Counted from the first letter of the stretch, positions 2,254-53,937 are shown. The stretch is 64,000 nt of DNA from Myxococcales bacterium (GCA_043741435.1 JAYUBF010000264.1:381-64380), one strand, 5' to 3'. Made by a program: numbers and translations. Notes: generated by a model not told the origin, from the letters alone.

Positions 2254-3990
2254 ATGTACGCGACGAACAGAATGAAGTGGATTGCCGCCGCGCTGGCGGG
2301 ACTTTCGTTGGCCACCCAGGTGCGGACCTCGAGCGCCTGCGGTTGCTTCGCACCACCGAGCCCGATGACGCCGGTGGTGCAGGCCGGCGAACGCATCTTG
2401 TTCGCTCATGACGGGAACCAGGTCACCGCGTACATCCAGATCCAGTATCAGGGCAACGCGGCCGACTTCGGCTGGCTCGTGCCGTTACCGTCGGTGCCCA
2501 CGCTCGAGCTCGGCACCGACGAGCTCTTCACGACGCTGCAACGCACGACCAATCCACAGTACCAGATCAGCACGCAGCGCGACTATTGCGGAGGTCCCAG
2601 CAACTACTCGGTCGGCGGCTGTGGCGGGTTCGGCGATTCGGCGAGCGTGAACTACAGCACCGCCGATGCGGGCGCGTCCTTCGCCTCCGACCTGGGCGCA
2701 TTCAACCCAGCGCTGGTGGAGCAGGGGAGCATCGGCCCGTACGACTACGCGGTGCTGAAGGCCGACGACAAGACGGAGATGCTCACGTGGCTCGCCGACA
2801 ACCGCTACTACGTGCCCGATGCGACGGGGCAGGCGGTGCAGCCGTACATCCACACGGGCGCGTTCTTCCTCGCGCTCAAGCTGAAGTCGGGCGAGAACGC
2901 GGGTAGCGTAGCGCCGATCGTGCTGCGCTATGCGTCGGATCTGCCGATGATCCCGATCACGCTTACTCAGGTGGGCGCGATCCCCGACATGGGTGTGCTG
3001 GTCTGGCTGCTGGGCAACGCGCGCGCCATCCCGCGCAACTACTACCATGTCGAGCTGAACGAGATGCCGATCTGGGAGAACCTTCTCGACTATCCGAAGC
3101 AGGCCATCCGTGCGATTCACGACGCACCGCAACGCCACGCGTTCCTCACCGAGTACGCGGGTGCGAGCAGCGTAATGGACACGCAGCTCGACTATGCGGG
3201 CCGCTTCGGTGACCTCGACCTGCTGCGTACCATCACGAAGCCGGCCTACTACCTCCAGTACCTGCGCAACAACGGCTTCGCGTTCGACGCCACCTTGTTC
3301 GGCATCCTCGCGCGTTATCTGCCGATGCCGCAGGAGCTCGTCGCCCAAGGCGTGACGGCGACGGCGTTCTACCAGAACTACGACTACTACATCGGTCAGG
3401 CAGGGCCTCAGGCGGATCCGGATGCCGGCACGGCCCTCGCGTTCGATGCGATGAAGCTCACCGACGATCTCAACACGCGCATCGTGCAGCCGTCGCGAGC
3501 AGCGTCGAAGCTCTTCGATCGCTACCCGTACCTCACGCGCATGTACACGGCGCTGTCGCCGGAGGACATGAACCTCGATCCGGTGTTCAGCGAGAACCCC
3601 GATCTTCCGTCGGTGAATAACGTGCACACCGCGACCTTGCGGGTGCCTTGCAAGAGCGCCGCGTGGTTGCGCACCGAAACGGGCCGCGAGGAGCAATGGC
3701 TGAGCTCGCTCCCACCGAACAAGGTGTGGCCGGCGACGGTGCAGGTGCAGCGTCTCCGCGAAGCCGGTGCGCCCGAGGTGGTCACCGACAACGGGGCGCT
3801 CATCACGCAGACCCTCGGCACGGTGGATCACGGAAGCGCCGGCAACGAACCCGAGTCTACGGTCGCGGAAGATCATGGCGGCTGCGGGGCCTGCGATGTT
3901 CGCCGAGGCGGATCGGGGGGCGCGCTCGGCAGCTTCGCACTCGTCGGCGTCGCGATCTTGCTCGTGCGGCGCCGTCGCCGTGTGAGCTAG
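2254..3990 (+). CDS. DUF2330-family secreted protein with MYXO-CTERM-like tail
   Basis: ACGCF after the signal peptide, IQIQYQG, FGWLVPLPSVP; C-terminal GGCGAC, hydrophobic helix and RRRRR; SD AAGGAG upstream. Confidence 0.85.
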   Translation: MYATNRMKWIAAALAGLSLATQVRTSSACGCFAPPSPMTPVVQAGERILFAHDGNQVTAYIQIQYQGNAADFGWLVPLPSVPTLELGTDELFTTLQRTTNPQYQISTQRDYCGGPSNYSVGGCGGFGDSASVNYSTADAGASFASDLGAFNPALVEQGSIGPYDYAVLKADDKTEMLTWLADNRYYVPDATGQAVQPYIHTGAFFLALKLKSGENAGSVAPIVLRYASDLPMIPITLTQVGAIPDMGVLVWLLGNARAIPRNYYHVELNEMPIWENLLDYPKQAIRAIHDAPQRHAFLTEYAGASSVMDTQLDYAGRFGDLDLLRTITKPAYYLQYLRNNGFAFDATLFGILARYLPMPQELVAQGVTATAFYQNYDYYIGQAGPQADPDAGTALAFDAMKLTDDLNTRIVQPSRAASKLFDRYPYLTRMYTALSPEDMNLDPVFSENPDLPSVNNVHTATLRVPCKSAAWLRTETGREEQWLSSLPPNKVWPATVQVQRLREAGAPEVVTDNGALITQTLGTVDHGSAGNEPESTVAEDHGGCGACDVRRGGSGGALGSFALVGVAILLVRRRRRVS

Positions 3991-40477: not shown

Positions 40478-41537
40478 ATGCTCCACGACTTTATCATCGA
40501 GAATCGAGCCGAGATCATTCGCCGCTGTCGGCTCAAGCTGGCGGCGCGCACCGCTCCGCGGGTGACCGACCGAGAGCTCGATCAGGGCGTCCCGTTATTC
40601 CTCGACCAATTCGTAGAGGTCGTGCGGGCAGCCTCGGGTACCACCGCTGCGATGGCGAACAGTGCTTCGCTTCACGGCGGCACGCTCCTCGGGCAAGGCT
40701 TCTCGGTCGCGCAGGTGGTGCACGACTACGGTGGCATCTGCCAGTCGATCACCGAGCTCGCCATCGAGACGAAGGCCGCGATCAGCGCACTCGAGTTCAA
40801 GACCCTCAACCTGTGCCTCGACGACTCAATCGCAGCGGCGGTGACCGAGTACGCGCGACTCCGTGCCGAAGAAGGCAGCGAGCGAACAGGTCGGCTCGCG
40901 CACGAGCTCAACGGGCTGCTGCAAACGTTGGGGATGGCCTTCGACATGCTCAAGTCGGGCGAGGTGGGGATGGGAGGCAGCACGAGCAAGATCATCGACC
41001 GCAGCCTCATCGGCATGCGCAAGCTGGTCGAGCGGGAGCTCGTGGAGGTGCGCGTCGGCTCCGATGACATCCACGCCCAGGAGGTGGTGCTCCGGGACTT
41101 CATCGAGGAGATCGAGATCACGGCGACGATGGACGCCAGGGCCTGTGGGCTCGGGCTCTCCGTCTCGTCCGTCGACAAGGACGTGACGCTCGTGGCCGAC
41201 CGTCACATCCTCTCGTCGGTGGTGTCGAACCTCCTCAGCAACGCGTTCAAGTTCACCCGTAGCGGCGGGAACGTGGCGCTACGGGTGGAAGCGGCCGATG
41301 CTCGGATCCGCATCGAGGTCGCCGACGAGTGCGGCGGGATCGTGAATGGCGACGCGGAGGCGTTGTTCCGGCCCTACGCGCAGCGGAACGAGAACCAGAC
41401 CGGCATGGGGCTCGGGCTCGCGATCTGCCGAAAGGGCGCGCGCAGCCACGGCGGCGACATCACCGTGCGCAACACCGCTGGGCACGGCTGCGTCTTCGTG
41501 CTCGACTTGCCGCGACAGGGTCCGGTGATTGCCGTGA

Positions 41538-41548
<11 letters not shown>
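40478..41548 (+). CDS. Cytoplasmic sensor histidine kinase
   Basis: LAHEL, NLLSNAFKFT, DECGG, GMGLGLAI; N-terminal HG...VVHDYG helical sensor. Confidence 0.9.
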
Positions 41549-42968
<1,420 letters not shown>

Positions 42969-43126: not shown

Positions 43127-43465
43127 TCAGAAGGGACGAGGCGCGTGGGTTACGATCTGGACGACCGGCGCGTGTGACGAGAGGATTGCGCAGGTGCGCT
43201 CGAGGATGGCGTCCGTGGTCGCGTTGATCTCGAGACACAGGGAGCCCGCGCCTTCGTCGTCGGTGAGGCGGATCCAGCTCGTCTCGGTGCTGCCGTGCGG
43301 GTCGTCGCTCCAGACGGTGTGAACTGCCCCGTCGACCGCGTCGCTGCCATCGTGCTCGAACGCCAGCCCGAGCTCCGCGTTGGCGAGCGCCAGTGCGTGC
43401 TCGATGCGAGCGATGACGTCGGCGCGGTCGCTCGTAGGATCGAGGAGGAAGGCCCGGAATTGCAT
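43127..43465 (-). CDS. Hypothetical acidic protein, possibly truncated
   Basis: Coding-like codon use from MQFRAFLL; no family recognised. Confidence 0.4.
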   Translation of the reverse strand: MQFRAFLLDPTSDRADVIARIEHALALANAELGLAFEHDGSDAVDGAVHTVWSDDPHGSTETSWIRLTDDEGAGSLCLEINATTDAILERTCAILSSHAPVVQIVTHAPRPF

Positions 43466-43575
43466 GTCGACACCACTCGCGCTCATTGGGCAATTACACC
43501 ATGCAAAGCCGCCGGCACGGTCGAGCACCTGGCGCTCGTGCATCGCCGAGTGTTCATCGTCGATGCTCGGGATCG

Positions 43576-44127
43576 TTACGGCGTGTCGTTTAGGCAGGTG
43601 TCGTTGACGGGCTTGCAGGTGGCCGGGTTGCAGTCGGGGCTGCTCATGTTCGCGCACGTGCCGCCGAATGCGCGGGCGAACGCATCGTTGAGGCAGTTGC
43701 CGCAGGTGCCCATCGGGTCGCCGGCGCGATCGGTGAGCATGCTGCCAGGCGCGTCGAGGGTGCACTTGAAGCCACCAGCGTCGGCATTGCCGAGACAGTA
43801 GCTCCGACCGCAGTCGAGCATGTCGAGCCACGTGCTCGACACAGTGGAGGACTTCGCGTTCTTGTTGCAGGTGGTGACGCAACCCTGCAGCGTGGGGGTC
43901 GTGCCCGAGAGACAGTCGGTCATGCAGGTCGCGTAACCGGCGCAGCCGTACTTGGCGCCCATGTCCCGCGTCTTGGGTCCGTCGGCGCTCGACAGGTCGC
44001 CACCGAGGTCGATGCCGTGGACGGCGTCGTCGCCACCACACCCAACGAATGGGACGCTCGCGAGGAGCACGAAGCTAGCGATGCAGGACGCGTAGAGGAC
44101 GCGCAGGCATCTCAGCGCGTCAGCCAT
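43576..44127 (-). CDS. Cys-rich lipoprotein
   Basis: Lipobox FVGC; 17 Cys, many as CxxC/CxxxC; start overlaps the upstream stop. Confidence 0.75.
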   Translation of the reverse strand: MADALRCLRVLYASCIASFVLLASVPFVGCGGDDAVHGIDLGGDLSSADGPKTRDMGAKYGCAGYATCMTDCLSGTTPTLQGCVTTCNKNAKSSTVSSTWLDMLDCGRSYCLGNADAGGFKCTLDAPGSMLTDRAGDPMGTCGNCLNDAFARAFGGTCANMSSPDCNPATCKPVNDTCLNDTP

Positions 44128-45058
44128 CGGTGTAGCTCATCACGAGGTGCATCCAGCACTCCTCGTTCGCCGGGTTCACGTACGCGTGCGGCACGTCCGC
44201 GGAGAACACCGCCGCGTCGCCTTCTCCCAGCTCGAGCCGTTCTCCAGCGATCTCGATTTCGAGGCGGCCCGACGTAACCACGAGGTTCTCGCGTGTGCCG
44301 GGCTGGTGCGCGTCTGCTTCCTCGCGGCCGTGTGGAGCGAGCCAGAGCTCGTAGAACTCCACCTGCTTCTGCTCCCCGAACGGAAACAGCGCGCGCGAGG
44401 AGAAGCGATTGTCGGCGCTGACGAGGCGCTTGGCCTGCGCTTTGCGCAGGACGCTGGTGGTAATGCGCGCCGAGGTCGCGAGCAGCGACGAGAACGGCAC
44501 GTCGAACGCGCGCGCGATCTTCCACACCACGTTCACGCTCGGCACCGTTCGACCCAGCTCGATCTGTCCGAGGGTGGCTCGGCTGATGCCCGCGTGCTTC
44601 GCGAGGACGTCGAGCGTCATTCCGCGGTTGGTGCGGAGAACGCGGACGTTCTCGCCGACGATCGTGTCGAGTGATGGCTCCGGAGCGTCCACCTTGGCGG
44701 GCTCGTTGCCCGGAGGCGGTGCGGTTTTTTCGCGACGCGGTGGCTCGGGGACCTCGATCGGAAACCCCGCCTTGGCCCACGCCGCGGTGCCGCCCTCGAG
44801 GCTGTAGACGTCGCCGAAACCGAGGCCCTCGGCTAGCTTCGCGGCGGTGAGACTGCGCTGTCCGCGCTGACAAACGAGCAACACCTTGTCCCGCGGCAGG
44901 GCCCGCCTGGGATCGGCCTGTACCTGCGCGAGTGGCACGAGCCGCGCACCGGGTAGGTGCCCCGTCGCCCACTCGCCCGGCTCGCGCACGTCGACGATGT
45001 CGAGGCCGCCCGCCACGATGAGCGCTTGCACGTCCGTCGGTGAGAGCGTCCTCGTCAC
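44120..45058 (-). CDS. Rhodanese + XRE HTH + cupin transcriptional regulator (SutR-like fusion)
   Basis: DVREPGEW..GHLPGA, CQRGQRS, LEGGTAAW; Pro linker; HTH ISRATLGQIELG..PSVNVVWKIA; cupin H.PGTRENL, GDAAVFSADVPHAYVN. Confidence 0.9.
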   Translation of the reverse strand: MTRTLSPTDVQALIVAGGLDIVDVREPGEWATGHLPGARLVPLAQVQADPRRALPRDKVLLVCQRGQRSLTAAKLAEGLGFGDVYSLEGGTAAWAKAGFPIEVPEPPRREKTAPPPGNEPAKVDAPEPSLDTIVGENVRVLRTNRGMTLDVLAKHAGISRATLGQIELGRTVPSVNVVWKIARAFDVPFSSLLATSARITTSVLRKAQAKRLVSADNRFSSRALFPFGEQKQVEFYELWLAPHGREEADAHQPGTRENLVVTSGRLEIEIAGERLELGEGDAAVFSADVPHAYVNPANEECWMHLVMSYTDG

Positions 45059-46863
45059 GAGCGCGTCGCGCGACCACTCTGCAAGCGATGAAGCGCTGCC
45101 ACGAGCGCGTCGACGTCCTCGCACGTGTTGTACGGCGCGAACGACGCGCGCACGGAGTGCTCGACGCCGAAGCGTCGCAAGATCGGTTGTGCGCAGTGAT
45201 GCCCGGAGCGGACGGCGATCCCTTCCTTGTCGAGTAGCCCGCCGACTTCTTCGGTCTTCTGGCCGGCGAGGACGAAGGACACCACGCCGGCCTTCTCGGC
45301 AGCGGTGCCGATCATGGTGAGCCCCGGCACGGTCGCGAGCTGCTCCGTGGCGTACACGAGGAGATCGTGCTCGTGGCGGCTGACATTCTCGATGCCCACC
45401 CGGGTGAGCCAGTCGAGCGCTGCCCCGAGGCCGACCGCGTCGGCGATGTTGCCGGTCCCAGCCTCGAAGCGCGCGGGCGGGGGCTGATAGCGCGTGCGCT
45501 CGAACGTGACGTCCTCGATCATGTTGCCGCCACCTTGCCACGGCGGCATTTCTTCCAGGACTGCGCCCTTGGCGATGACCGCACCGATTCCGGTCGGGGC
45601 GAAGACCTTGTGACCGGAGAAGACGTAGAAGTCGCTGTCGAGGGCCTGCACGTCGACGCGCATGTGCGAGACGGCTTGGGCACCGTCGACGAGCACCTTT
45701 GCGCCATGCCGGTGCGCCATGTCCACGATCTGCTTGATGGGCGTGATGGTGCCGAGCGCGTTCGAGACCTGCGTGATGGAGACGATTCGTGTCCGCGGCC
45801 CGAGCAGCTTCTCGTACTCGGACAGGATGATTTGCCCGGTGTCGTCGACGGGAGCGACGCGCAGGCGTGCGCCTTTCTCGGCTGCGAGCATCTGCCAGGG
45901 TACGATGTTCGCGTGGTGCTCGAGCCATGACACCACGATCTCGTCATCGGGCCCGACGTTGCGACGACCCCAACTCTGCGCGACGAGGTTGATGCCCTCC
46001 GTGGCCCCACGCACGAAGACCACGTCGCGCACGGACGGCGCATTCACGAAGCGGCGGACCGATTCCCGCGCGCCTTCGTACGCCTCGGTGGCGCGAGTCG
46101 CCAGCGTGTGCGCGGCGCGATGGATGTTGGAGTTCTCGGTCTCGTAGAACTTGCTCAGGCGATCGATCACGGCGCGCGGCTTTTGTGTGGTCGCCGCATT
46201 GTCCAGCCACACCAGCCGCTTGCCGTTCACGCGCTGCTCCAAGATCGGAAACTCGCGGCGGATGGCGTAGGCATCGAAGGCATTGCCCGAGGTCGGCGCG
46301 AGCGCGGGCGAGGTGAGCGGGTCGAGCTCGTGGTCCGGTATTGCGAGAGGCTGGCTCGTAGGGATGGTCCCTCGCGCAGGCGCCGCCGTAACGGGAGGCG
46401 CCTCTTCCGGATCGAACAGCGGGAAGCGCAGCAAGTTCGCGAGCTCGCCCAGGGCGGATGGATGCACCCCCGCGTCGGCGAACGCGTCCAGGTTCGGCGC
46501 GCTGTGAAACGGCGACCACGACGTCGCGGGCGACGGTGCCGTCGGTGTCGCCACGGTCGACGGAATCGTGGGAACCGAGCCTGTCGCCGCCGCGGTCGGC
46601 ACGGTGGACGTGGGCACGGCCACCGGTGCTGCCGCGGCGGATGCCCCGAACAGATCGTTCGCCATGCGCGACATCACCATCGTGAGCGTGGCGGGATCCC
46701 AGTCGGGCAGCGTCGGCGCACCGGGCACACGGGCGCCTGCGAGCGCGACGCCCGGCGTCGGCACGTGGCCGGGCACCGAGTGCGCGGTCGTCGGGGATGG
46801 CGCGTGCCCGAGGAGCAGGTTCACCTCCTCGGGGGACCCACCACCCGAATCAGGCGTACTCAT
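45055..46863 (-). CDS. Encapsulin-cargo cysteine desulfurase (SufS class) with N-terminal cargo-loading region
   Basis: LDNAATTQKP, SGHKVF, FEAGT, RSGHHCA; ~195-aa Pro/Ala/Thr-rich extension containing MSRMANDLF. Confidence 0.93.
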   Translation of the reverse strand: MSTPDSGGGSPEEVNLLLGHAPSPTTAHSVPGHVPTPGVALAGARVPGAPTLPDWDPATLTMVMSRMANDLFGASAAAAPVAVPTSTVPTAAATGSVPTIPSTVATPTAPSPATSWSPFHSAPNLDAFADAGVHPSALGELANLLRFPLFDPEEAPPVTAAPARGTIPTSQPLAIPDHELDPLTSPALAPTSGNAFDAYAIRREFPILEQRVNGKRLVWLDNAATTQKPRAVIDRLSKFYETENSNIHRAAHTLATRATEAYEGARESVRRFVNAPSVRDVVFVRGATEGINLVAQSWGRRNVGPDDEIVVSWLEHHANIVPWQMLAAEKGARLRVAPVDDTGQIILSEYEKLLGPRTRIVSITQVSNALGTITPIKQIVDMAHRHGAKVLVDGAQAVSHMRVDVQALDSDFYVFSGHKVFAPTGIGAVIAKGAVLEEMPPWQGGGNMIEDVTFERTRYQPPPARFEAGTGNIADAVGLGAALDWLTRVGIENVSRHEHDLLVYATEQLATVPGLTMIGTAAEKAGVVSFVLAGQKTEEVGGLLDKEGIAVRSGHHCAQPILRRFGVEHSVRASFAPYNTCEDVDALVAALHRLQSGRATRS

Positions 46864-47755
46864 GGAAGTGATCGATGACCACGCCTTCGAGCACGCCGAG
46901 CGCGTCGTGCGTGAGCACGGCCGAGGAGCAATACAGCGAGAGCAAGTACGACGCGTGGGCCGCTTGGTTGATTCCCATGAGACGCACCGACAAGCTCGGG
47001 CTCACCTCGCCGGGAATTCCGGGCTGGAAGAGACCGATGACGCCGCGCTTCCGCTCACCCGTGCGGAGCAACAGGATGTCGCTCTTGTTGCCCTTGATGG
47101 GCAGCTTGTCGCACGGGACGATCGGGAGACCGCGCCACGTGATGAACGGTGCGCCGAACAGCGTGACCGTCGCGGGTGGCACGCCGCGACGGGTGCACTC
47201 GCGTCCGAAGGCAGCGACGGCCTTCGGGTGCGCGAGGAAGAAGCTCGGCTCCTTCCACACCGTGGAAATGAGGTTGTCGAAGTCGTCGGGCGTCGGCGTT
47301 TCCTTGCGCGGCTTGATGCGCATGTCGGGATCGACGCTCGCGAGCAGGCCGTAGCTGTGGTTGTTGATGAGCTCGTGTTCTTGCTTTTCTTTCAGCTTCT
47401 CGACGGCAAGGCTCAGCTGTTCCTTCACTTGATCGTGCGGGCTGCGAAACAGGTCCGAGATGCGCGTGGAGACCTCGATGGTCGTGGTGACCGAGCTCAG
47501 CACGTACTCGCGTGGCTGGCCGTCGTAGTCGCTGAAGCCGACGGGGAGCGGCTCGCCGGGCTCGGGGGTGCACTTCACGGCGAAGTCGTCGTCGAGGGCC
47601 TGGTTCACCCGGTACACACCGGCCTCTACCGGCGTCCAAGGCAAGAGCTGCACGAGCCAGCGCGGTGTCGCGCCACGCCACTGTGGTGGAGTCTTGGTGG
47701 TATTCGAGAGCTGCCGTGCTGCTCGTTCACCTACGTGACGCAATTGCTCGGACAT
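46850..47755 (-). CDS. Family 2A encapsulin shell protein (SrpI-like)
   Basis: AARQLSNTTKTPPQ..TPRWLVQLLPW.PVEAGVYRVN, PREY, PTPDDFD, FFLAHP, WRGLPIVPCDK, GVIGLFQ; 301 aa. Confidence 0.93.
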   Translation of the reverse strand: MSEQLRHVGERAARQLSNTTKTPPQWRGATPRWLVQLLPWTPVEAGVYRVNQALDDDFAVKCTPEPGEPLPVGFSDYDGQPREYVLSSVTTTIEVSTRISDLFRSPHDQVKEQLSLAVEKLKEKQEHELINNHSYGLLASVDPDMRIKPRKETPTPDDFDNLISTVWKEPSFFLAHPKAVAAFGRECTRRGVPPATVTLFGAPFITWRGLPIVPCDKLPIKGNKSDILLLRTGERKRGVIGLFQPGIPGEVSPSLSVRLMGINQAAHASYLLSLYCSSAVLTHDALGVLEGVVIDHFHEYA

Positions 47756-47833
47756 TGTGACCGCCCCCTGTTGAGAAGGTGGCAGCGTAGAGGACTCTCG
47801 GGTGGCCGCGCAACGCCATACTCACCGGATGAT

Positions 47834-49405
47834 TCAGTCGACCCGCCGCCACACCACGATGCCGGCGATCCGTGCGTCGATGCGATACTTCGCGGCGAGC
47901 ACGCTCGCGAGCGCGGGGTAGTGGTCGATGGGATACTTGCCGTACGACTTGTACCCAGCCGCTGCCGTGTCGAGCACCAGCGTCGGCGGACGGGTGGCGA
48001 AGTCGACGGCGAGCAGGTCCCACGCCTTCGCCACCTCGGTCTGCTTCGTCTGCACCTTCGGGTCGTCCTCCGACGGGGTCGCCGGTGACAGACCGGTGAG
48101 GTAGTTGCAGAACGTGAAGCGTGCACCGGAGAGACGATCGGCGGCGTGATAGAGCTGCGGGACGTTGCCCCACACCCACACGGTGTCGTCGGGGCGAGTG
48201 ATCTCCTGAATCGCGCGACCGATCTTGCGGTAGTCCGGATCGTCCGCGTTGAGGATCGGCTGCGAGACCGACGGCACGATGGCGATGACGAAGAACGCCA
48301 GCGCGGGTGCTGTCCACGCGGCGAGCACGGCGCGCGGGGCCCGCGTCGCCCAGTGTGCGAGGACCGGGGCACCCGTGAGCGCGAGGCACAGCTCGAGCTG
48401 TACGAAGTAGTGGCCGAAGAAGCGTCCACCGAGGGTCACGCAGGCGAAGACGAGGAGCGTGAACGGCGCGAGCCACAGCGTGGCCTCGCTTCGCGCCCGC
48501 ACGATCCGCACGAGCCCAACGGTGCCGGCGGCGTAGAACAGGAGGCCCGGGATCACGACGCCGACGAGCTGCATGCACAGCCGGGTCAACGCGCCGACCA
48601 AGCTCGGCCCTTGTGAGATGTACGTGAGGTTGAAGAGCAGGGCCCAGTCCACCACGTCGCCGAGCACGCCGCGGCTCGCGAAGTAAGCGGTGATGGCGCC
48701 GACGACGGCGAGGAACCCCGCGGCCGAGGAGGCGAGGCCAGCGAACGCGGCCACCACGTGATCGCGCATGGATGCGCCGCGCGCGATCCAGAGGAACGGC
48801 AACGCGACGGCCACCGCGATGCCTTGGTACTTGTAGGCGGTGGCCGCCGCCACGAGGGCACCGGCGAGCGCGTCGAGCACGACCCGGGCGAGGCCTTTGC
48901 GTGAGCTCGCCTCGAGCGTGGAGAGCAGAGCGAACGCCGTGGGCATGTTGAGCATGAGCTCGCCGTTCACGGCGAGACCGTCGACCGGTTGCTTGATCGT
49001 GGATGCCACCGCGTAGCTCAGCGCTGCCCAGCCTGCAGCGTCGGTCTGCGGGAAGGCTCGTCGTGCCACGCCGGCGAGCGCGAGGCAGGTGAGCAAGGCG
49101 TAGACGAGCCCGAGTGTGTGCACCGCGTGCGCGACGTGGTCCGCGGTCGCGTGGACCCCACCCACGAGCGCGCGCATCGCGGCGTAGCTGTAGGTCAGGC
49201 CCGGCGGCTTGTGGTCGACGGTGTCGTGGTACATGACACCGCCGGCCGAGACGGTGTGGGCCATCGCGTCGTAGATGGCTTCGTCGTCGGAGATGACGTC
49301 GTAGCGATACGCGGGCACGCGCGTGGCGATGCAGACGAGCACCGCGAGCACGACGAGGCCAAGCCCTCGGGGCCGTCGCGCCGTTTGCGAGCTCTCGCCG
49401 TCCAT
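47834..49405 (-). CDS. PMT/ArnT-like (GT-C) membrane glycosyltransferase
   Basis: DDEAIY, DHKPPG, NGELMLN, RFFGHYF; many TM helices. Confidence 0.85.
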   Translation of the reverse strand: MDGESSQTARRPRGLGLVVLAVLVCIATRVPAYRYDVISDDEAIYDAMAHTVSAGGVMYHDTVDHKPPGLTYSYAAMRALVGGVHATADHVAHAVHTLGLVYALLTCLALAGVARRAFPQTDAAGWAALSYAVASTIKQPVDGLAVNGELMLNMPTAFALLSTLEASSRKGLARVVLDALAGALVAAATAYKYQGIAVAVALPFLWIARGASMRDHVVAAFAGLASSAAGFLAVVGAITAYFASRGVLGDVVDWALLFNLTYISQGPSLVGALTRLCMQLVGVVIPGLLFYAAGTVGLVRIVRARSEATLWLAPFTLLVFACVTLGGRFFGHYFVQLELCLALTGAPVLAHWATRAPRAVLAAWTAPALAFFVIAIVPSVSQPILNADDPDYRKIGRAIQEITRPDDTVWVWGNVPQLYHAADRLSGARFTFCNYLTGLSPATPSEDDPKVQTKQTEVAKAWDLLAVDFATRPPTLVLDTAAAGYKSYGKYPIDHYPALASVLAAKYRIDARIAGIVVWRRVD

Positions 49406-51300: not shown

Positions 51301-51348
51301 GTGCTTTCAGCTTGGCAGGCGACCAATGAAATGCTGTGCTGCCGCTTC

Positions 51349-53937
51349 ATGGAGATCCTCGACCTCACCGAAGCCCGCAGCCAACTTATCGACCTCGCCC
51401 GTCGGCGTTTCGGGCGCATCAGTCCCGAGCGCATCGCGGAGCACGTGATCGCTGTGAGCACGGGAGCAGATTGGCCGGTGCGCAAAGCGGCCCTCGAGGC
51501 CCTGGCGCGGCGCTACGCCTTCGCGGAGCGAGATGGGCTTCGTGTTCGCAAGTCACGTGGGCGGCGGGTGAACCTACTCGGTGATTACCAGACCGAGCGC
51601 TCCGACAAAAACAAGCGCGACTCTCGACCCTATCAGACGTCGCTACTCTCCTTCGCACCGCTGCGCACGAGTTGTTCGTGCGCGGACTTCGTGCGCAGCT
51701 CGCTCGGTCTGTGCAAGCACGGCCTCGTGGTTCTCGAATCGGTGGAGCGAGCAGGGCCCCCGCGCGCCGAATCTGCTGCACGACGTTCGCCGCCCGTCGC
51801 GGAGATCACCTGGTCGCCTGAGCACCCTCTACGAGGAGATGCAGATCGGCTCGCGCGCCTGCGGATCGCGATCTCTGTGCGGCCGATGCCTGAGGGCTTT
51901 CGTGGTGGTATCCCGCTGCACGCTGCGCTGGTCGATGCGAAGAAGCGGTTCGCGCTGATCGATTCGCTGACCGCACTGCTGCGACGCGGAGCGCACCACG
52001 TCGAACCGGCGATCACGACTCTGCTTTCCGAGGAGCGAGAGCGAGTGGTGCGCGTGCTTGCGAACCAAAATGCGCTCAAGACCAGCCTCGCGTCCCTGCC
52101 CAAGCTGAAGCGCAAGCTCTACCCGTATCAGCGCGTCGGCGTCGAGCGCTTCCTCGCGCGCGGCCGCCTGCTCCTCGCGGACGACATGGGCCTCGGAAAG
52201 ACCGCGCAGGCCATCGCCGCCTGCCATGCGCTGTTCTCCACCGGGCGAATCAAGCGAGGCCTACTCATCGTGCCCGCAGCGCTGAAGCCGCAATGGAAAC
52301 GCGAGTGGGGGGCGAGCACCGACGTACCGCTCACGCTCGTCGAAGGCGCCCCAGACGATCGCGCACGCCTGTACGCCGAGACCAAGCGTGGTTTCCTGGC
52401 GATCGGTTACGAGCAGCTCATGCGCGACTTTTCGCACGTTCAGCGCTTCGCTCCAGAGATGGTTGTGCTCGACGAGGCGCAGCGCATCAAAAACTGGGCG
52501 ACCAAGTCGGCGAGCTATGTGAAGAGCTTGGTCCCGGCGTTTCGCCTGGTATTGACCGGTACGCCGATGGAGAACCGCTTCGACGAGCTGGCCTCGCTCA
52601 TGGATTTCGTCGACGACACCGCGCTCGAGCCCAAGTGGCGCCTGGTGCCGTGGCACTCCATCGAGCGCGGCGACGGCGGCCGCGGAACCGCAGGCGCACG
52701 AAACCTCGACACCCTACGCGAGCGTCTCTCCACAAGCATGCTACGCCGCCTGCGCACCGAGGTGCTCACCCAGCTCCCCGGACGCACCGACACACGCGTG
52801 CCCGTCGAGATGAGCGATCCGCAGCGCGAGGCACACGCTGATCTTGACCAACCGATCGCGGTGCTGATGCAAAAGGCTGCACGCCGCCCGCTGCAGCAGG
52901 CCGAGTTTCTGCGGCTCATGCAGCTGCTCACCACGCAGCGGATGATCTGCAACGGGCTTGCGCAGGTCAATTTCCGCAGCGAATGGCCGCGCTGCCAGGC
53001 CAGTGCAGCCCCAAGCGCGCTGCTCGATAGTTTGTTCGCGCCGAAGCTGTCTGCATTTCGCGGGATCGTCGATCAGATCGTCGTCGGTCAGAAGCGCAAG
53101 ACCGTGGTCTTCAGTCAATGGCGCAATATGCTGCGCCTCGCCGAGTGGAGCGTGCGCGACCAGCTAGCAGCCGTAGGGTTGCGCACCGCGTTCTTCACTG
53201 GTGCCGAGTCGCCGAAGCTGCGCGAGCGGGCGATCGTCGACTTCCATGACGATCCCGACTGCGCGGTCATGTTCCTCAGCGACGCCGGCGGCGTCGGTCT
53301 GAATCTTCAACGTGCAGCGACCTGTTGCGTCAACCTCGAGCTACCGTGGAACCCGGCGGTGCTCGAGCAGCGCATCGGCCGAATCCACCGCCTGGGTCAG
53401 ACCGCGCCCATCGACGTCTATAACCTCGTCGCTGAGGACGGAATCGAGGGGCGCATCGCGACCCTGATCGCCAACAAGAAGGCGGTCTTCTCCTCGCTCT
53501 TTGATGGATCAAGTGACGAGGTGCGCTTCGAGGGCCAGTCCTCATTCCTCGACGGCATGCGCAAGCTCATGGAGCCGACGCCTCCCCCAGTTGAATCTCT
53601 AGAGGGCGCGGACGCGCTCGAGACAGGCGATGCTGTCGCAGTCACGGAGATCGAAAGCACCATAGAAGCATTGGAGCCAGGCGAGCTTGGGTCGATCGCG
53701 GATGAAAGTGCAAACTTCGGTCTATCGATCACCCAGCTTCCGGCGGGAGGCTTGCGAATCGATGCGCCACCTGCGCTCGCTGGGCCGCTCGCGCAGCTTC
53801 TCGAGTCGTTGGCCCGTTCGCTGCGCGCCGCAAGCCGGCCGCTTGGCACTTTCTCCTTGAGTCCGTCGGAGAGCGAGCCGATGGCGACACCAGAGCGCGG
53901 CTCGGATCAAAGTAGACCCCTGTTCCCACCCGAATAA
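51349..53937 (+). CDS. SWIM zinc finger + SNF2-family helicase
   Basis: CSCADF..LGLCKH, LADDMGLGKT, DEAQRIKN, LTGTPMEN, GGVGLNL, WNPAVLEQRIGRIHR. Confidence 0.93.
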   Translation: MEILDLTEARSQLIDLARRRFGRISPERIAEHVIAVSTGADWPVRKAALEALARRYAFAERDGLRVRKSRGRRVNLLGDYQTERSDKNKRDSRPYQTSLLSFAPLRTSCSCADFVRSSLGLCKHGLVVLESVERAGPPRAESAARRSPPVAEITWSPEHPLRGDADRLARLRIAISVRPMPEGFRGGIPLHAALVDAKKRFALIDSLTALLRRGAHHVEPAITTLLSEERERVVRVLANQNALKTSLASLPKLKRKLYPYQRVGVERFLARGRLLLADDMGLGKTAQAIAACHALFSTGRIKRGLLIVPAALKPQWKREWGASTDVPLTLVEGAPDDRARLYAETKRGFLAIGYEQLMRDFSHVQRFAPEMVVLDEAQRIKNWATKSASYVKSLVPAFRLVLTGTPMENRFDELASLMDFVDDTALEPKWRLVPWHSIERGDGGRGTAGARNLDTLRERLSTSMLRRLRTEVLTQLPGRTDTRVPVEMSDPQREAHADLDQPIAVLMQKAARRPLQQAEFLRLMQLLTTQRMICNGLAQVNFRSEWPRCQASAAPSALLDSLFAPKLSAFRGIVDQIVVGQKRKTVVFSQWRNMLRLAEWSVRDQLAAVGLRTAFFTGAESPKLRERAIVDFHDDPDCAVMFLSDAGGVGLNLQRAATCCVNLELPWNPAVLEQRIGRIHRLGQTAPIDVYNLVAEDGIEGRIATLIANKKAVFSSLFDGSSDEVRFEGQSSFLDGMRKLMEPTPPPVESLEGADALETGDAVAVTEIESTIEALEPGELGSIADESANFGLSITQLPAGGLRIDAPPALAGPLAQLLESLARSLRAASRPLGTFSLSPSESEPMATPERGSDQSRPLFPPE

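Follow-up and report, generated by a model that had tools for sequence, protein, structure and literature searches.

We analyzed a window of 64,000 nucleotides (nt) from a Myxococcales bacterium (GCA_043741435.1 JAYUBF010000264.1:381-64380), meaning the whole stretch of DNA, to whose first letter coordinates refer unless a locus is named. On its minus strand lies an operon that encodes, head to tail, an encapsulin shell protein, a cysteine desulfurase, and a third protein in which a rhodanese is joined to an XRE-type helix-turn-helix (HTH) domain and a cupin. The source is a metagenome-assembled genome of 5.57 Mb, in which this shell gene is the only Family 2A copy; judged by the names of its relatives, it belongs to Myxococcota and, through kinship, to the class Polyangia. 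The three genes are as follows:

46850..47755, minus strand: Family 2A encapsulin shell (ATG at 47755, TGA at 46850, 301 amino acids (aa))
45055..46863, minus strand: encapsulin cargo cysteine desulfurase (ATG at 46863, TGA at 45055, 602 aa)
44120..45058, minus strand: Rhodanese-XRE HTH-Cupin fusion (P0001; GTG at 45058, TGA at 44120, 312 aa)

The desulfurase gene overlaps the 3' end of the shell gene by 14 nt (ATGAGTACGCCTGA), and the GTG start of the fusion overlaps the desulfurase stop as GTGA (4 nt); the start at 45058 agrees with homologues that align from residue 1. The shell matches PF19307 (SrpI-like, E = 1.5e-94) and scores 464.4 bits against the family 2A shell equivalog NF041162 (cut-off 380), and its 392 bits against the family 2B model NF041163 fall under that model's cut-off of 400; what sets family 2B shells apart from family 2A is a cNMP-binding insertion. 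The desulfurase scores 825.6 bits against NF041166, the equivalog for the family 2A cargo desulfurase (cut-off 800); its catalytic domain (Aminotran_5, E = 6.4e-145) occupies aa 218-587, and its N-terminal region of ~190 aa is rich in Pro, Ala, and Thr and unmatched by the profile. These profile matches identify the operon as one of the Family 2A (desulfurase) encapsulins. Cargo packaging and sulfur storage in the shell are predicted from family membership.

The fusion is a single open frame without a frameshift and comprises four segments:

44753..45058, minus strand: rhodanese domain (aa 1-102), defined by PF00581, with the Cys63 codon at 44872..44870 in the loop CQRGQRS
44675..44752, minus strand: Pro-rich flexible linker (aa 103-128), defined by Pro content and by a low predicted local distance difference test score (pLDDT)
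44474..44674, minus strand: XRE-type HTH domain (aa 129-195), defined by HTH_3 and HTH_31, with helices at 130-193 in the model
44132..44371, minus strand: cupin domain (aa 230-309), defined by Cupin_2, with H243, H251, E257, H291, and C301 (codon at 44158..44156)

The Pfam matches to Rhodanese (PF00581; aa 6-96, 62.5 bits, cut-off 22.2, E 5.4e-17), HTH_3 (aa 139-190, 52.9 bits, cut-off 23, E 3.9e-14), and Cupin_2 (aa 240-303, 46.9 bits, cut-off 27.2, E 2.3e-12) all clear their thresholds, as do HTH_31 (E 3.4e-12) and HTH_19; Pro makes up 31% of aa 102-128. A preliminary description, made from the window without database searches, had reported the gene order with its 14-nt and GTGA overlaps, a Family 2A shell and desulfurase, and one frame joining a rhodanese with an intact CQRGQRS loop, a Pro-rich linker, an XRE HTH, and a cupin. 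Every element was found where it had been placed, with shell and desulfurase above their NCBIfam equivalog cut-offs and the domains above those of Pfam.

AlphaFold modeled the rhodanese with pLDDT values of 96-98 and the HTH and cupin mostly with 82-97. The linker, which falls below 50 at aa 117-124, and aa 212-230 were predicted to be disordered. A complex prediction of the rhodanese (aa 1-105) with the XRE-cupin part (aa 125-312) scored 0.00 in two runs without controls, which speaks neither for nor against contact between them. YgaP and further rhodaneses of a single domain can be superposed on the rhodanese domain, which has their fold (Foldseek root-mean-square deviations of 1.3-2.8 A to solved rhodaneses) and whose six-residue active-site loop begins with a Cys. 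The length of this loop separates sulfurtransferases from Cdc25-type phosphatases. Sulfurtransferase activity is thus predicted for the domain from its fold and loop. The remainder has a Cro/C1-type HTH followed by a C-terminal cupin, the order typical of XRE-cupin proteins, and its best solved match, by sequence (aa 135-305, E 7e-19, 26% identity) and as the top Foldseek match, is the Vibrio XRE-cupin protein 1y9q.

All of the best 120 relatives, counted as the best 120 database clusters listed (NCBI, JGI, ENA, and Logan), likewise combine Rhodanese, HTH, and Cupin, at 56-73% identity; their linkers are 20-50 aa long (median 26), with a median Pro fraction of 0.22. Several fused relatives lie on megabase contigs. 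Named carriers include Nannocystis radixulma (P0068) and Archangium, and in Labilithrix luteola DSM 27648 the fusion is on a finished chromosome (locus L006). A Logan contig of 1533 nt spans 44142-45674, including both junctions, with 0 differences, the Logan contigs being those of two runs that may be the assembly's own source. Clustering at 50% left 2-3 full-length fused representatives, so the family is compact and probably myxobacterial; no other full-length fused form occurs among the best 150. The architecture search that the preliminary description had proposed and the Logan contigs both speak against an assembly artefact: the fusion is a genuine, conserved myxobacterial protein.

To establish how closely the fusion is linked to encapsulin genes, we compared 80 related genome loci, with neighbors identified by tblastn. 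Thirteen hold a fusion, of which two (L008 and L011) are cut off by contig ends, leaving 11 informative. A desulfurase, a shell, or both adjoin the fusion in 10 of these 11 (L001-L007, L010, L012, and L014), and in eight of the 10 the order is shell-desulfurase-fusion. In L002 the desulfurase adjoins the fusion and the contig stops before a shell could show; in L010 the fusion lies immediately 5' of the shell gene, with a second, divergent XRE-cupin gene beyond the desulfurase; and in L003 the desulfurase was overlooked by tblastn and found by Pfam. Among metagenome loci, the desulfurase is directly upstream in all nine fused loci that have at least 150 nt of upstream sequence. A phylum sample of 401 genomes contains the fusion in five and a family 2A shell above the cut-off in 15, and all five fusion genomes have the shell: in four, shell and fusion are adjacent on one contig, and in the fifth the desulfurase is split across two contig ends, with matching edges and in the expected order. 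We give these counts without a statistical test because related genomes are not independent. The neighborhood analysis suggested earlier as a check on encapsulin linkage therefore supports it in the genome loci (10/11), the metagenome loci (9/9), and the phylum sample (5/5 fusion genomes).

Sulfur-assimilation genes flank several related operons, among them a sulfate ATP-binding cassette (ABC) transporter (L014), Sulf_transp/DUF6691 pairs (L010 and L025), a pyridoxal phosphate enzyme with a cysteine synthase fold (L006), and an NADPH-dependent flavin mononucleotide reductase, encoded between desulfurase and fusion (L012:3000-3623). DUF2325 genes also lie near two operons (L010 and L096).

Rhodanese and XRE-cupin also occur in encapsulin operons as separate genes. 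In L024-L027 the order is shell-desulfurase-rhodanese-XRE-cupin, the last two genes being separated by a stop and a change of frame. Directly upstream of the shell gene there are two tandem XRE-cupin genes of different lineages in L017, L019, L020, and L022, and one in L021; a stand-alone rhodanese follows the desulfurase in L017, L019, and L020, and adjoins the XRE-cupin on the opposite strand in L021 and L022. Genome G225 has a divergent rhodanese and XRE-cupin ahead of the shell, beside sulfate ABC transporter genes. A shell or desulfurase was also present in 12 of the 68 unfused XRE-cupin loci of the metagenome set. That the two domains are separate neighboring genes in other genomes implies that they form a functional pair, the Rosetta-stone pattern. 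The fused rhodanese is most closely related, at 48-55% identity, to rhodaneses that myxobacterial encapsulin operons encode as stand-alone proteins.

In a tree built from 78 rows of the XRE-cupin part, 34 of them fused, all 34 fused rows fell in one clade, with a Shimodaira-Hasegawa-like approximate likelihood ratio (SH-aLRT) of 92. Its sister comprises all close unfused forms (SH-aLRT 93), within which the encapsulin-linked copies form a group of their own (SH-aLRT 99); a third, divergent encapsulin-linked XRE-cupin lineage branches outside. By this topology, at least three XRE-cupin lineages entered family 2A operons, and one of these fused with the rhodanese, a single time. The neighborhoods of four stand-alone paralogs (contig C103 of the source genome, G135, G150, and G400) showed no common or sulfur-related context and therefore give no clue to the ligand. 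The paralog on C103 (L090:5935-6579) is 53% identical to aa 123-311 of the fusion, has Ala at position 301, and lies downstream of an extracytoplasmic function (ECF) sigma/zf-HC2 anti-sigma pair.

Residue conservation distinguishes the fused proteins from their stand-alone paralogs. Rhodanese residues C63, G66, R68, and S69 are invariant in 120/120 fused proteins, and the 12 commonest loop variants listed all fit CxxGxRS. The cupin residues H251, E257, H291, Y293, and N295 are also invariant in all 120, and H251, E257, and H291 are likewise invariant in 120/120 stand-alone paralogs. In contrast, C301 occurs in 118 of the 120 fused proteins but in none of the 120 paralogs, which have A, T, or S there; H243 in 115 versus two; and Trp302 in 105 versus none. 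The XRE-cupin part contains no Cys whatever in 115 of the 120 stand-alone proteins, and the unfused encapsulin-linked XRE-cupins also lack C301. In the model, residue 301 opens the last cupin strand, and the first strand ends just before H243; if these two strands pair as is usual in a jelly roll, C301 and H243 are probably neighbors. One candidate for a divergent fusion without C301 (L138) was rejected: its N-terminal match is not a rhodanese, and the protein is a stand-alone XRE-cupin.

We put at roughly 50% the probability that the fusion is a local, sulfur-responsive regulator of its own operon with the tethered rhodanese as its input; such a protein would probably couple production of the compartment to the sulfur state of the cell. 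The literature describes XRE-cupin proteins as specialized repressors that act locally, on neighboring metabolic genes (PMC7901475; here and below, citations refer to the accessible portions of the papers). By analogy, the XRE-HTH and cupin part would bind DNA, most likely as a dimer, and control its own operon, and the rhodanese on its flexible Pro-rich tether would be the sensory input. Cys63 would take up sulfane sulfur from thiosulfate, from low-molecular-weight persulfides, or from sulfur mobilized from the compartment, and its loaded or unloaded state would be relayed to the regulator, the likeliest route being C301 beside H243. DNA binding could then be altered either because the persulfide is transferred or because a Cys63-S(n)-Cys301 bridge forms. 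What we infer from sequence comprises binding to DNA at the operon, whether regulation is positive or negative, where the sulfur comes from, and the relay from C63 to C301. The relay, in which Cys63 is persulfidated, the sulfur is passed to Cys301/His243 within the same dimer, and DNA binding is thereby switched, is put forward tentatively, as a possible route. Equally tentative is the suggestion that the sulfur comes from thiosulfate, persulfides, or the encapsulin shell, such that the operon would gauge the sulfane-sulfur pool that its compartment fills or empties. The preliminary description had already proposed a persulfide sensor that could report compartment output to the promoter, and both C301 and the split neighboring genes lend this idea new support.

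Several observations weigh against such a regulator. The AlphaFold model has a predicted template modeling score (pTM) of 0.44, with the domains themselves above 90, and so places rhodanese and cupin relative to each other without confidence. Stand-alone paralogs with 50-55% identity occur in genomes without a family 2A shell and in unrelated neighborhoods, so the XRE-cupin lineage is not dedicated to encapsulins. L009 is the sole informative genome locus (1/11) in which the fusion does not adjoin an encapsulin. The fusion there (1609-2586) sits beside a weak match to an IS200-like transposase (Y1_Tnp, E 6e-4; 2811-3422), a transposition-type neighbor that suggests relocation. Because the fused clade is monophyletic, the 118/120 versus 0/120 distribution of C301 amounts to one gain followed by retention. 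Three metagenome loci (L109, L112, and L176) hold XRE-cupins of the fused clade that have C301 but lack a rhodanese, both in frame and elsewhere on the contig; they may represent domain loss, pseudogenes, or misassembly. Conversely, a protein of the stand-alone clade (L149) has a Cys at position 301. As to the three loci themselves, L109 encodes a Ser-rich N-terminus, L112 continues in frame from ~100 aa of an unidentified protein, and L176 has an open frame of 149 aa that encodes a cupin and nothing else.

Nor did we find an operator in the DNA upstream of the operon. The region in question is the following:

47756..47833, minus strand: gap of 78 nt, a possible promoter region, separating the shell ATG from the stop (47834) of a membrane-protein gene upstream

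This gap contains no perfect inverted repeat with arms of at least 6 nt. Palindromes of the TCCG-N6-CGGA / TCCGYTYRARCGGA type number two in the window, versus 4.7 expected, and none is near the operon. Among 5+5 palindromes with spacers of 0-12, none was common to at least six of 10 upstream regions (shuffles reached three). These operator searches were simple, and the upstream regions compared come from divergent relatives. In L006, L007, and L021, a TCCGYTYRARCGGA-type palindrome does precede the shell gene. By eye, the gap contains the hexamers TTGCGC (47813..47808) and TACGCT (47789..47784), separated by an 18-nt spacer, which are weak evidence of a promoter, and a G-rich ribosome-binding stretch at 47768..47761; relatives have a TA-rich hexamer (TAnnnT) at a similar place, also by eye. 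A consensus scan of 43300-48100 returned 0 sigma-70-like promoter sites and two terminator-like sites, neither of them on the operon's strand and together no more than shuffles gave, and no sigma-54-type promoter was seen by eye upstream of the shell gene.

The alternative that survives best is that one chain does two jobs without internal signaling. The rhodanese would be the operon's sulfur acceptor or mobilizer, as proposed for stand-alone encapsulin rhodaneses, the cupin pocket (H251/E257/H291) would sense a small molecule or metal, and the fusion would merely fix co-expression after a gene merger. Loss of the stop between the adjacent rhodanese and XRE-cupin genes of L024-L027 would yield just such a protein; the invariance of H251/E257/H291 in both fused and stand-alone proteins indicates that the ancestral ligand site has been kept; and the linker is long, variable, and disordered, with no confident packing between domains. 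We nevertheless consider this account less likely than a rhodanese that serves as the regulator's input. Regulators are normally far scarcer than metabolic sulfur carriers, so the merger would be costly unless both parts act together; C301 and H243 were gained and kept in an otherwise Cys-avoiding family; and the fusion has been retained across the whole clade.

It is improbable that the HTH-cupin part is instead an Fe(II) enzyme like HppE or HEPD, whose substrate, a sulfur compound, would come from the fused rhodanese in the manner of persulfide dioxygenase-rhodanese fusions. After 1y9q, the next Foldseek matches are indeed Fe(II) enzymes with an HTH-like domain and a cupin (HppE, HEPD, and MPnS; E 2e-9 to 7e-8), a persulfide dioxygenase-rhodanese fusion is matched via the rhodanese domain, and the cupin has an invariant 2-His-1-Glu set. 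However, identity to the three enzymes is 12-15%, versus 26% to 1y9q, three HTH families exceed their Pfam cut-offs, and the stand-alone sister clade has thousands of members in varied neighborhoods (5839 matches at E<=0.001), as is seen with regulators.

We consider it just as hard to credit, if not slightly harder, that the rhodanese docks on the shell exterior, so that assembled shells would remove the regulator from its DNA site and the operon would count its compartments. A reversible association of rhodanese with the shell exterior has been proposed (PMC8346489, PMC10836720), and such docking is compatible with how tightly the fusion and shell genes are linked; it would, however, leave both the strictness of the catalytic loop and the conservation of C301 unexplained. 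Lastly, an assembly or gene-calling artefact, which a fragmented metagenome-assembled source (351 contigs, 89% complete) might have led one to fear, has a negligible probability and is refuted by the open frame, by the like architecture of 120/120 best relatives, complete chromosomes included, and by the Logan contigs of two runs, possibly the source runs, that cross the junction without differences.

Downstream of the fusion lies one further gene in the same orientation:

43576..44127, minus strand: fourth open reading frame (ORF; P0004), 183 aa, of uncertain operon membership

This ORF, which is absent from the preliminary description, overlaps the fusion stop by 8 nt (ATGGCTGA). It is Cys-rich (17 Cys), has a signal peptide and a lipobox-like start, and has a third-position GC content (GC3) of 0.87; Pfam and NCBIfam profile searches gave no family match. 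We rejected it as a conserved member of the operon and kept it out of the conserved system because tblastn found no relative beside the fusion in the 80 genome loci. About 0.6 kb past it, a histidine kinase gene (HATPase_c; 40478-41548, plus strand) converges with that of an NtrC-type sigma-54 activator (Response_reg, Sigma54_activat, and HTH_8; 41538-42968, minus strand). On the other side of the operon is a SNF2-family helicase gene (SNF2-rel_dom and Helicase_C; 51331-53937, plus strand), apparently without relation to it. For 43500-48000, 0 RNA datasets were listed, the only entries being two DNA runs from one sediment study, possibly the source of the assembly.

As compartments for storing sulfur, desulfurase encapsulins are widespread and are induced when sulfur is limiting; the accessible text names no regulator for them and leaves open what the co-encoded rhodanese does (PMC10836720, PMC10925157). 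Because its rhodanese is attached to a putative DNA-binding protein, the fusion physically joins these two questions. Four operon layouts have been described, made up of shell, desulfurase, an optional rhodanese, and an optional serine acetyltransferase, and the accessible text includes no regulator among them; a rhodanese is co-encoded in about half (PMC10836720). The preliminary description's statement that a stand-alone rhodanese and a serine acetyltransferase often accompany Family 2A operons agrees with print, where both are named as accessory genes (PMC8346489, PMC10836720). Desulfurase encapsulin operons are up ~10-fold under sulfur limitation, again with no regulator named in the accessible text (PMC10836720). 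A survey of encapsulin-linked rhodaneses dropped proteins of > 200 aa (PMC10925157), and this fused family would therefore have been left out; surveys that filter out long rhodaneses have thus missed a regulator-containing class of operon. The preliminary description had left open whether the architecture was already known, and a literature search whose scope did not extend to subscription papers and supplementary operon tables turned up no paper that describes the fusion or an XRE-cupin regulator linked to encapsulins.

What emerges is a testable hypothesis with named residues (C63, C301, and H243) and cultured carriers, namely Labilithrix luteola DSM 27648 (L006) and Nannocystis radixulma (P0068). 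Should the relay prove true, a desulfurase encapsulin would have its first dedicated regulator in the fusion, whose persulfide sensing would be enzyme-mediated instead of depending on spontaneous thiol chemistry, and the stand-alone rhodaneses of other encapsulin operons would by implication signal in trans to neighboring XRE-cupin regulators.

Compared with the Family 2A operons already described, such as those of SrpI of Synechococcus elongatus and of Acinetobacter baumannii 118362, the present one has the same type of shell, a similarly N-terminally extended SufS-type desulfurase, and a co-encoded rhodanese. Here, however, the rhodanese forms the N-terminus of an XRE-cupin protein, and no acetyltransferase was found. 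The A. baumannii rhodanese, Ab-RLD, is likewise encoded with a desulfurase encapsulin but is a stand-alone homodimer; it is modified by persulfide and by thiosulfate and acts as a thiosulfate sulfurtransferase (PMC10925157). No chain named Ab-RLD or A. baumannii is among the 37 solved-structure matches listed for the fusion at E<=0.001, which is no gauge of distance between the two.

The fusion shares its HTH_3 and Cupin_2 order with the XRE-cupin factors ErfA, PsdR, and PauR of Pseudomonas, PuuR of Escherichia coli, and 1Y9Q. It differs from them in its additional N-terminal, catalytic-type rhodanese, in the clade-typical Cys301/His243, and in the position of its gene, which is last in the operon and not divergent. 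It is not a PuuR orthologue, since it scores 34.9 bits against the PuuR equivalog model, whose cut-off is 211. SutR, which has a cupin domain, had been invoked in the preliminary description as an XRE-cupin regulator of sulfur metabolism. The Xre family membership and the link to sulfur utilization, on which there is a paper, are borne out in print (PMC4797297).

As a proposed mechanism, the closest parallels are the two-cysteine persulfide-sensing repressors, which include SqrR and CstR as well as BigR. The BigR repressor is inactivated by H2S and polysulfides, and its operon encodes the sulfurtransferase/dioxygenase Blh (PMC5823870). The logic proposed here is the same, in that sulfane sulfur on a cysteine pair would alter DNA binding at a sulfur operon that encodes a rhodanese-type sulfurtransferase. 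The likeness is one of proposed mechanism only, with neither ArsR nor CsoR among the Pfam and NCBIfam matches of the fusion. Whereas BigR, SqrR, and CstR have ArsR or CsoR folds, the fusion is an unrelated XRE-cupin protein, and one of its two candidate sensing cysteines lies in a tethered enzyme domain.

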